A DNA stretch of 64,000 nt, taken from the NCBI RefSeq assembly GCF_013167455.1, contig NZ_CP038328.1; one strand, given 5' to 3'. The translations under genes and the position numbers were made by a program. The DNA comes from Escherichia coli O157:H7. Lineage in GTDB: Bacteria; Pseudomonadota; Gammaproteobacteria; Enterobacterales; Enterobacteriaceae. This document shows positions 59,638 through 63,959 of this stretch, piece after piece. Numbering within the stretch: position 1 is the first letter of the stretch; every line of letters begins with the position of its first letter. The notes below the pieces were generated by a model that saw only the letters and a program-made list of their open reading frames with translations, was not told the DNA's origin and did no database searches.

Positions 59638-59721
59638 AACCGCCCACGAAAAAGAGAAAAAGGGTATACTCACGCACCCTTTTCAGGGGCAATGTCGAAA
59701 TTTTATCATTCAGGAGGGCCG

Positions 59722-60858
59722 ATGAGCCACTTAGACAACGGTTTCCGTTCACTGACACTACAACGTTTTCCGGCGACGGATGACGTTAACCCGCTACAGG
59801 CGTGGGAAGCGGCGGATGAATATTTGCTGCAACAGTTGGACGACACAGAAATCCGCGGCCCGGTGTTGATCCTGAATGATGCCTTTGGTGCGTTAAGCTG
59901 CGCGCTGGCGGAACATAAGCCGTACAGCATTGGCGACTCATACATCAGTGAACTGGCGACGCGCGAGAATTTACGCCTCAACGGGATTGATGAGTCGAGC
60001 GTGAAGTTTCTCGACAGCACCGCCGACTACCCGCAACAGCCGGGTGTGGTGCTGATCAAAGTGCCGAAAACACTGGCATTGCTGGAACAGCAACTGCGTG
60101 CGCTGCGCAAAGTGGTCACGCCACAAACACGTATTATTGCCGGTGCCAAAGCCCGTGACATCCACACTTCCACGCTGGAACTATTCGAAAAAGTGCTCGG
60201 CCCGACCACCACCACGCTGGCATGGAAGAAAGCGCGCCTGATTAACTGCACTTTCAATGAACCACCGCTGGCCGATGCGCCGCAGACCGTTAGCTGGAAG
60301 CTGGAAGGTACTGACTGGACTATCCACAACCATGCGAATGTCTTCTCCCGCACCGGGCTGGATATCGGCGCGCGCTTCTTTATGCAACATCTGCCAGAGA
60401 ATCTCGAAGGGGAGATTGTCGATCTCGGTTGCGGTAATGGCGTTATTGGTCTGACGCTGCTTGATAAAAACCCGCAGGCGAAAGTGGTGTTTGTCGATGA
60501 ATCGCCGATGGCGGTTGCTTCCAGCCGTTTGAACGTTGAAACCAACATGCCAGAGGCGTTGGATCGCTGCGAATTTATGATCAACAACGCGCTCTCCGGC
60601 GTGGAGCCTTTCCGCTTTAATGCTGTGCTCTGCAACCCGCCGTTTCATCAGCAACATGCGCTGACCGATAACGTCGCCTGGGAGATGTTCCACCACGCCC
60701 GCCGCTGCCTGAAAATCAACGGCGAGCTGTATATCGTTGCCAACCGTCACCTGGATTACTTCCATAAACTGAAGAAAATTTTCGGCAACTGCACCACCAT
60801 CGCCACGAATAATAAATTTGTGGTGCTGAAAGCAGTGAAGCTGGGGCGTCGTCGGTAA
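59722..60858 (+). CDS. rlmG: 23S rRNA m2G1835 methyltransferase
   Basis: [38 protein letters not shown]... (378 aa) with SAM-binding motif [11 protein letters not shown] and NPPFH catalytic motif. Confidence 0.9.
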
Positions 60859-60869
60859 GATTGACAGCT

Positions 60870-60965
60870 ACCTGCCAGATAAGGCGTAAACGCCTTATCT
60901 GGCATACGTTTAGCACATTACCCCCAGGTCGGATAAGATGCGGCAAGCGTCGCATCCGGCAATGT
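60870..60965. repeat. REP/BIME palindromic units
   Basis: ctgccagataaggcgtaaacgccttatctggcat ... ggtcggataagatgcggcaagcgtcgcatccggca. Confidence 0.75.
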
Positions 60966-61076
60966 CTGCCCAGTTCTGGAATCGCGCTCCATAAAACAAA
61001 AAATCCCTGTCACCATCCTCTACATTCTCTTGTTTAGCGTTGTTTAACGTTTATTCTTCCGTCACACAGATAAATT

Positions 61077-61133
61077 CATCCGTTGCCAATCTGTCAACGG
61101 ATGTTATCATATTGCCAATTTGTCAACGGACGT
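61077..61133. promoter_or_regulatory. higBA promoter with palindromic operator (9-9-9) and a degenerate second copy
   Basis: CATCCGTTG-ccaatctgt-CAACGGATG (61077-61103) is a perfect inverted repeat; attgccaatttgtcaacggacg (61111-61132) repeats the right half immediately before the higB ATG. Confidence 0.5.
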
Positions 61134-61141
61134 GATGAAGA

Positions 61142-61456
61142 ATGCACCTGATAACTCAAAAAGCATTGAAAGATGCTGCGGAAAAATACCCGCAACATAA
61201 AACGGAGTTGGTGGCTCTAGGGAACACGATTGCTAAGGGATATTTCAAAAAACCTGAGTCATTAAAAGCAGTATTCCCATCTCTGGATAACTTCAAATAT
61301 CTGGATAAGCATTATGTTTTCAATGTTGGGGGCAATGAATTACGTGTTGTAGCAATGGTCTTTTTTGAATCGCAAAAGTGCTACATACGTGAAGTTATGA
61401 CGCATAAAGAATACGATTTTTTTACCGCTGTTCATCGTACTAAGGGGAAAAAATGA
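61142..61456 (+). CDS. higB: mRNA interferase toxin HigB (RelE/ParE superfamily)
   Basis: 104-aa ORF MHLITQKALKDAAEKYPQHKTELVALGNTIAKGYFKKPESLKAVF...; 4-bp overlap (ATGA) with higA. Confidence 0.85.
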   Translation: MHLITQKALKDAAEKYPQHKTELVALGNTIAKGYFKKPESLKAVFPSLDNFKYLDKHYVFNVGGNELRVVAMVFFESQKCYIREVMTHKEYDFFTAVHRTKGKK

Positions 61457-61869
61457 TTGCGATTGCCGACATCTTGCATGCAGGAGAAAAGCTAACTGCT
61501 GTGGCACCTTTTCTGGCGGGTATTCAGAACGAGGAACAATACATCCAGGCGCTGGAACTGGTAGATCATCTGCTGCTCAACGATCCTGAAAACCCCTTAC
61601 TGGATCTGGTGTGTGCCAAAATAACCGCGTGGGAAGAATCAGCGCCCGAATTTGCGGAATTTAATGCCATGGCTCAAGCCATGCCTGGCGGTATAGCCGT
61701 GATTCGTACCCTTATGGATCAATATGGTTTAACCCTTTCCGATCTGCCGGAAATTGGCAGTAAATCTATGGTGTCACGCGTTTTGAGCGGGAAGAGGAAA
61801 TTAACGCTGGAACACGCTAAAAAATTGGCAACGCGATTCGGCATTTCTCCCGCCTTGTTTATTGATTAA
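61453..61869 (+). CDS. higA: Antitoxin HigA (HTH-XRE)
   Basis: 138-aa ORF with C-terminal HTH (SMVSRVLSGKRKLTLEHAKKLATRFGISPALFID). Confidence 0.85.
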   Translation: MIAIADILHAGEKLTAVAPFLAGIQNEEQYIQALELVDHLLLNDPENPLLDLVCAKITAWEESAPEFAEFNAMAQAMPGGIAVIRTLMDQYGLTLSDLPEIGSKSMVSRVLSGKRKLTLEHAKKLATRFGISPALFID

Positions 61870-61913
61870 CGCGACGTGCCGGATGCGTTGCATCCGGCAC
61901 TTCAATGCACGAT

Positions 61914-63959
<2,046 letters not shown>

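Follow-up and report, generated by a model that had tools for sequence, protein, structure and literature searches.

The higBA operon in this stretch of Escherichia coli O157:H7 DNA appears to be controlled through two operators for the antitoxin HigA, which bracket its single sigma-70 promoter and act as autorepression sites, a reading to which a probability of about 0.9 is assigned. The two sites, here termed O1 and O2, were identified in a window of 64,000 nucleotides (the whole stretch of DNA analysed; contig NZ_CP038328.1) as two copies of a 17-bp box, GTTGmCA-N3-TGkCAAC. For E. coli K-12 the promoter, its inverted repeats and autorepression by HigA were already published in 2010, and binding was measured later. 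The present comparison defines the operator precisely, as a 17-bp box that occurs twice and keeps a fixed geometry to the -35 and -10 elements across Gammaproteobacteria, and adds examples of specificity switching in plasmid homologues.

The genes downstream of the two sites are assigned as E. coli higB and higA (ygjN and ygjM), forming an E. coli-type HigBA type II toxin-antitoxin operon, on the basis of domain, structure and genome matches. Positions 60860-61900 show 100% DNA identity to E. coli O157:H7 chromosomes in which the two ORFs are annotated as higB and higA (RefSeq). The toxin gene comes first, both genes are co-oriented on the + strand and they overlap by 4 nt. HigB, a ribosome-dependent mRNA interferase and RelE-fold toxin, matches PDB entries 5IFG_A (E 5.9e-68) and 6KML_A, while HigA matches 5IFG_B/6IRP/6JQ4 (E 3.9e-85) as well as 6KML/6KMQ and the Shigella entry 5YCL, with a layout consisting of an N-terminal toxin-binding/dimerisation domain followed by a C-terminal HTH_3 domain. 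Assignment of HigA to TIGR02607 (NCBIfam antidote_HigA, the Rts1/P. vulgaris type) was rejected, as its score of 19 bits is below the cut-off of 47.7. The shared name "HigA" therefore reflects gene order and not family membership, a basis for the name which is also stated in PMC2814082.

The first-pass annotation of this DNA had described an exact inverted repeat in which both arms and the spacer are 9 nt long, and this is borne out to the base: CATCCGTTG (61077-61085) and CAACGGATG (61095-61103) pair at 9/9 positions across the spacer ccaatctgt (61086-61094), in a region which as a whole reads ttCATCCGTTGccaatctgtCAACGGATGttatcataTTGCCAATTTGTCAACGGAcgtgatgaagaATG. The dyad also reaches inward, giving 12-nt arms, paired at 11/12 positions, around a 3-nt centre. 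It had further been claimed that the right half of the palindrome recurs 8 bp downstream, immediately before the higB ATG. A repeat is indeed present after an 8-bp gap (ttatcata, 61104-61111), but the copied part is not the right half; it is the inner 19 bp of the palindrome (the end of the left arm, the spacer and most of the right arm), containing a complete core dyad, such that ttgccaatttgtcaacgga at 61112-61130 is a copy of 61083-61101 with one mismatch (18/19), placed 29 bp downstream. The position relative to the gene was roughly right, the repeat ending at 61130, 11 nt ahead of the ATG at 61142. Perfect inverted repeats with 9-nt arms and a spacer of at most 20 number 25 distinct cases in the window, against 3.9 +/- 2.0 in shuffles (n=200), and most of them are terminators or REP elements. 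The palindrome by itself is therefore weak evidence, and was rejected as an argument for significance when taken alone. The repeat at 61112-61130 is the window's only 18/19 direct repeat with an offset of at most 48, and 0 were obtained in 200 shuffles.

A sigma-70-like promoter, TTGCCA-16-TATCAT with TG just upstream of the -10, was the sole + strand match between 60800 and 62000. The palindrome contains its -35, and the gap before the repeat its -10, in agreement with the overlap of palindrome and higBA promoter that had been proposed. Counting from the -10, the transcription start is predicted at about 61116-61118, within O2. O1 and O2 overlap the -35 and the -10/predicted +1 of the higB promoter, as operators would. 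The core dyads are GTTGCCA-ATC-TGTCAAC in O1 and aTTGCCA-ATT-TGTCAAC in O2, with half-sites about one helical turn apart, and the O2 core (aTTGCCAATTTGTCAAC) agrees with the dyad consensus at 11/12 positions. Matches to the box of at least 11/12 occur in the 64-kb window at 61082 and 61111 only, where 0.12 would be expected from shuffles; because the consensus was built from these same sequences, this count is partly circular for Escherichia loci, though not for distant loci. O2 is without the outer arm only, the -10 hexamer taking that arm's place, and the outer CATCC/GGATG arms of O1 are found in Escherichia only. The comparison indicates that the functional unit is the 17-bp box and not the 9-nt outer arms in which recognition had first been placed, and that O2 is a full core operator. 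The notion of two operators is thus upheld by the conservation of both boxes, whereas the description of the second as a half-site is not.

Table 1. Features of the higBA region and its surroundings, in window coordinates.
Feature	Coordinates	Strand	Basis and remarks
rlmG	59692-60858	+	gene upstream of higB
Hairpin after rlmG stop, TGCCAGATAAGGCGTAAACGCCTTATCTGGCA	60873-60904		sub-threshold naRNA4 (REP-derived) Rfam match
REP-like element	60918-60955		sub-threshold naRNA4 (REP-derived) Rfam match
Equivalent of the K-12 HigA-repressed fragment	61018-61147	+	primers ygjN-124-cw / ygjN-ccw2; primer mapping; PMC2814082 Table S1
O1 extended palindrome (9-9-9 of the first-pass annotation)	61077-61103		12-3-12, one mismatch in the O157 window
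O1 core operator, GTTGCCAATCTGTCAAC	61082-61098		conserved 17-bp HigA box; 12/12 to GTTGNCANNNTGNCAAC
-35 hexamer, TTGCCA (5/6)	61083-61088	+	promoter scan; within left half of O1
Direct repeat, 25 nt	61083-61107 (copy 1), 61112-61136 (copy 2)	+	88% identity, period 29
-10 hexamer, TATCAT (5/6)	61105-61110	+	16-nt spacer, extended-10 TG; in the 8-bp gap between repeats
O2 core operator, ATTGCCAATTTGTCAAC	61111-61127		11/12; begins right after the -10, spans predicted +1 and early leader
higB (ygjN), 104 aa	61142-61456	+	HigB_toxin, PF09907, E 3.6e-22, 78.9 bits vs cut-off 27
higA (ygjM), 138 aa	61453-61869	+	PF01381 HTH_3/XRE, residues 84-135, 31.9 bits vs cut-off 23
Second REP-like hairpin, after higA	61876-61900		
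fadH	61914-63932	-	gene after higA

A palindrome between two genes could also be thought of as an element of nucleic-acid structure, namely the terminator hairpin of rlmG, a REP-type repeat or a cruciform. A 27-bp dyad would fold as a hairpin, comparable inverted repeats in the window are mostly of these kinds, and in three enteric lineages O1 has longer arms whose sequences differ from one lineage to the next, a pattern formally like that of compensatory change. However, there is no T-run after the palindrome and the terminator scan made no call there, rlmG already has its own hairpin and REP-like elements at 60873-60955, and transcription is predicted to start downstream of the palindrome. 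The core is also conserved as sequence (GTTGNCA) across Gammaproteobacteria and not as pairing only, with the arms past the core unpaired in about 50 of 55 boxes. An Rfam scan of 60800-61950 gave no match on 61077-61133, the only hits being sub-threshold naRNA4/REP-like ones at 60867-61010. Terminator, REP and RNA readings of the palindrome were rejected on the terminator and Rfam scans, and a structural element in any of these forms is very improbable.

Conservation of the two HigA operators was assessed by a HigA scan of species-representative genomes, which yielded 37 loci whose HigA proteins are 42-99% identical. A recognisable higB lies directly upstream in 30 of the 37 (the window counted), and for these the 110 nt 5' of higB were compared. 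Two boxes precede higB in 24 of the 30 loci, over a range of HigA identity of 42-99%, with a centre-to-centre distance of 26-30 bp that is mostly 28-29. In every lineage with this layout the left half of box 1 contains the -35 (TTGACN or TTGCCA), and a TATnnT -10 abuts the left edge of box 2 or overlaps it by 0-3 nt. From the end of box 2 to the start codon there are 10-14 nt, with GGAG following the box in most distant loci. Information content calculated over 22 non-redundant loci approaches 2 bits where the box specifies a base and falls to about 0 in the flanks of O1, while in the flanks of O2 the signal is limited to the -10 and the GGAG Shine-Dalgarno. Across 167 kb from the 37 loci, all matches of at least 11/12 are found immediately 5' of higB or of a solo higA. 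This distribution is evidence for a two-operator layout that would be ancestral and widespread across Gammaproteobacteria.

Whether both boxes are operators bears on a point on which published descriptions differ. Jadhav 2020 is said to have used one 33-bp palindromic DNA, which would suit a system where O1 is the sole functional operator, HigA binds at a single site and O2 is a decaying duplicate or leader sequence. The E. coli O2 has no palindromy beyond its core and has A in place of G as the first base of the box, and O2 scored lower in six lineages where it is degenerate or lost (L008-L010, L012, L016 and L018; degenerate in the first five), so that it is dispensable in some. The review PMC10135005 likewise calls E. 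coli higBA a single-operator system. Over the 22 non-redundant loci, however, O2 is conserved as strongly as O1, with near-maximal information in the box and a sharp drop outside it. It forms a full dyad in most lineages (12/12 in L020, L021, L025, L028 and L031), its half-sites in plasmid homologues change in step with those of O1, and PMC12266136 names O1-O2 sites for E. coli hig. The comparative data support the two-operator model against the single operator of that one review, and a lone functional O1 is unlikely; the two boxes are also clean targets for mutagenesis.

The protein side of the interaction is consistent with this conservation of two HigA boxes. Among 38 homologues, HigA residues 97-115 (DLPEIGSKSMVSRVLSGKR, in the HTH) hardly vary, the N-terminal domain being the part that diverges, and a near-invariant HTH fits the invariant GTTG/CAAC core. 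The recognition-helix residues of the chromosomal protein are SKSMVSRVLSGKR. Homologues of HigA with 45-49% identity occur in about 2,500 plasmid records, most of them from Klebsiella. In the plasmid loci two dyads again flank a TATAAT-like -10, but the half-sites are altered on both arms of both operators. These half-sites are GTTyACA in Klebsiella pKP12 (L042; O1 GTTCACATATTGTAAAC, O2 GTTCACATAATGTAAAC), GTTTCCA in an E. coli IncF plasmid (L043; O1 GTTTCCAACTTGTCAAC, O2 GTTTCCAAGATGGAAAC) and of the GTTCCA/GTTTCCA type in both dyads of a Pantoea plasmid (L046). The recognition helices of the pKP12, IncF and Pantoea plasmid homologues differ too (SKSLVSQILSGQR, KKSLVSRILNGTR and QRSYVSRILRGDR, respectively). 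Such a joint change of half-sites and protein, although correlative, is the pattern expected of a symmetric dimeric repressor that has two operators.

Two further plasmid loci (L044 and L045, from Klebsiella and E. coli IncF plasmids) were left out of the operator analysis, as they have no HigA box and their YgjM-like gene comes after a RelE/ParE toxin and a second HTH gene. Three genes make up the arrangement at positions 109-1111 of these loci, for a toxin of the RelE/ParE family, a small regulator with an HTH and a YgjM/HigA-like protein (42-46% identical), and a different repeat, AGCTAACTTAGCT...AGCTAAGTTAGCT, precedes them.

Experimental work on the K-12 operon places the same promoter under HigA control. 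Christensen-Dalsgaard, Jorgensen & Gerdes (2010) renamed ygjNM as higBA. By their account (PMC2814082), primer extension gave one start site upstream of higB, -35 and -10 boxes were recognised, and the inverted repeats are marked in their drawing as putative sites of binding. In the same report a promoter-lacZ fusion is active only in the absence of higBA and is repressed by HigA supplied in trans, and induction is Lon-dependent. The fusion primers map to 61018-61147 in the window, which places the HigA-responsive promoter in a 130-bp fragment where the sole promoter-like match and the sole HigA boxes are those described above. The printed forward primer contains one base that is absent from the window, and its 15-nt core was used for the mapping; the primer used for primer extension maps to 61163-61181. 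The proposal of HigA autorepression at the palindrome and repeat is thus supported by the repression reported for the equivalent K-12 fragment. According to reviews (PMC8138530, PMC11869752, citing Jadhav 2020), the affinity for "the operator" is nanomolar and similar for HigA and HigBA. A full-text literature search for operator sequences returned nothing, and the same was true of a literature search for the PDB code 6KML.

For direct binding those reviews are the source, and a regulator other than HigA might instead bind the boxes, with HigA acting indirectly. Such an arrangement is barely credible, given that the box strictly co-occurs with higA homologues, including a solo higA without higB, and that it co-varies with changes of the HigA recognition helix in the plasmid homologues. 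In addition, the repression in trans was seen in a higBA-deleted strain (PMC2814082) and the binding which the reviews report is direct.

With HigA as the direct repressor at both boxes, one HigA dimer would occupy each 17-bp dyad, the half-site centres being about 11 bp apart and the two HTH motifs entering successive major grooves. Occupancy of O1 would occlude the -35 and occupancy of O2 would block the -10-proximal/+1 region, and HigA or HigB2-HigA2 at either site could exclude RNA polymerase or block open-complex formation. Degradation of HigA by Lon under stress, as published, would then derepress the promoter. We infer that O2 is occupied in vivo. The spacing of 28-29 bp corresponds to about 2.7 helical turns, which would not put the dimers on the same face of the DNA, and it therefore gives no basis for a claim of cooperativity.

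The extent of pairing around O1 varies among enteric bacteria. Beyond the 17-bp box the paired arms of O1 continue for +5 in Escherichia (61077-61103), +8 in Citrobacter sp. 18056 (L009 ~2120-2152) and +4 in Enterobacteriaceae bacterium 89 (L010 ~2123-2147). The sequences of these extensions are unrelated, being CATCC/GGATG in Escherichia, ACCACAA.../...TTGTGGT in Citrobacter sp. 18056 (33 bp in all) and TTAA/TTAA in Enterobacteriaceae bacterium 89. All other boxes (about 50) extend by 0-2 bp, and about 0.2 cases of long extension would be expected by chance. The enteric O1 may have an additional, sequence-independent property, such as a supercoiling-sensing cruciform or hairpin or a history of hairpin-templated palindromisation during replication or repair; this is a speculative and rather doubtful suggestion which, if true, would take enteric O1 beyond simple recognition by HigA. 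In E. coli J53 (L038 361-491, K-12 type) the position equivalent to 61093 is G, which gives a perfect 27-bp palindrome, CATCCGTTGCCA-ATC-TGGCAACGGATG. Over 61060-61145 (86 bp), 2,367 genomes are 98.8% identical to the window and 474 at least 99%, with J53 alone aligned for the G substitution.

Natural deletions were observed at the locus. One repeat unit, exactly 29 bp, is deleted in E. coli L1PEag1 (L039 ~2490-2540, corresponding to window 61083-61111), leaving one hybrid operator and intact higB and higA, with the -10 hexamer gone; this is as expected from recombination or slippage between the O1/O2 direct repeats. E. coli SCU-111 (L040 946-1216; also L041) has a deletion of about 326 bp, equivalent to window ~61058-61383, through which both operators, the promoter and codons 1-81 of higB are lost, while higA remains whole as an orphan antitoxin. 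Among complete E. coli genomes, higA is present in 4,376 of 5,426 and the promoter/operator stretch in 2,841, counts which suggest that about 1,535 of the 5,426 (~28%) carry higA without the operator region. Natural deletions of the promoter and higB could inform the study of orphan antitoxins as free-standing regulators. In an Acidiferrobacteraceae MAG (L015 2368-2878), a solo higA without higB has a single box, GTTGACTAATTGGCAAC, about 40 nt upstream, right after a radical-SAM-like gene.

At the same rlmG-fadH locus, higB can also be replaced. A gene for a DUF1266 protein (PF06889, 286 aa) stands in the place of higB, 22 nt upstream of a 93-96% identical higA, in Escherichia sp. MOD1-EC7003 (L003 1619-2917), in E. 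albertii (L004) and in two E. coli genomes (H36/H37). These DUF1266-higA loci contain no HigA box, and the DUF1266 protein may be either a new HigA partner or a replacement without relation to it.

Among known systems the closest is E. coli K-12 higBA itself, which lies at the same locus and whose proteins are identical or nearly so to those of PDB 5IFG/6KML. K-12-type strains differ from the window by 1 base in the 86-bp promoter region, where O157 has T in place of the K-12-type G at 61093; as a result O1 in O157 is paired at 11/12 and is not a perfect 12-3-12 palindrome, and the O1/O2 repeat is 18/19 instead of 17/19. The promoter of mqsRA (ygiUT) contains two palindromic operators for MqsA, a zinc-binding antitoxin that has a different fold arrangement and a different palindrome and is homologous to HigA in its HTH only. 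This operon, in the same genome, is also a toxin-first toxin-antitoxin operon, for which autorepression by the antitoxin is described (PMC2814082). The sehAB genes of Salmonella Typhimurium encode a homologous HigB/HigA-type pair at another chromosomal locus, SehB and E. coli HigA sharing 46% identity. The putative -35 and -10 of sehAB are reported to be covered by two palindromes, and SehB to bind as a dimer (PMC7160566), although part of the evidence on sehAB comes from the original report, PMC3868539, which was retracted. The hig operon of Proteus vulgaris Rts1 is more remote, since its HigA and that of E. coli do not belong to the same family, E. coli HigB is a PF09907 protein and the E. 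coli HTH is C-terminal. The operator sequences differ as well, and in PMC12266136 P. vulgaris HigBA is described as not binding an E. coli-derived control DNA. One Rts1 operator is bound by a HigB2-HigA2 tetramer. Like E. coli higBA, however, Rts1 hig is toxin-first, and its HTH antitoxin binds as a dimer to two inverted-repeat operators overlapping the -35 and -10 (Schureck 2019; PMC12266136).
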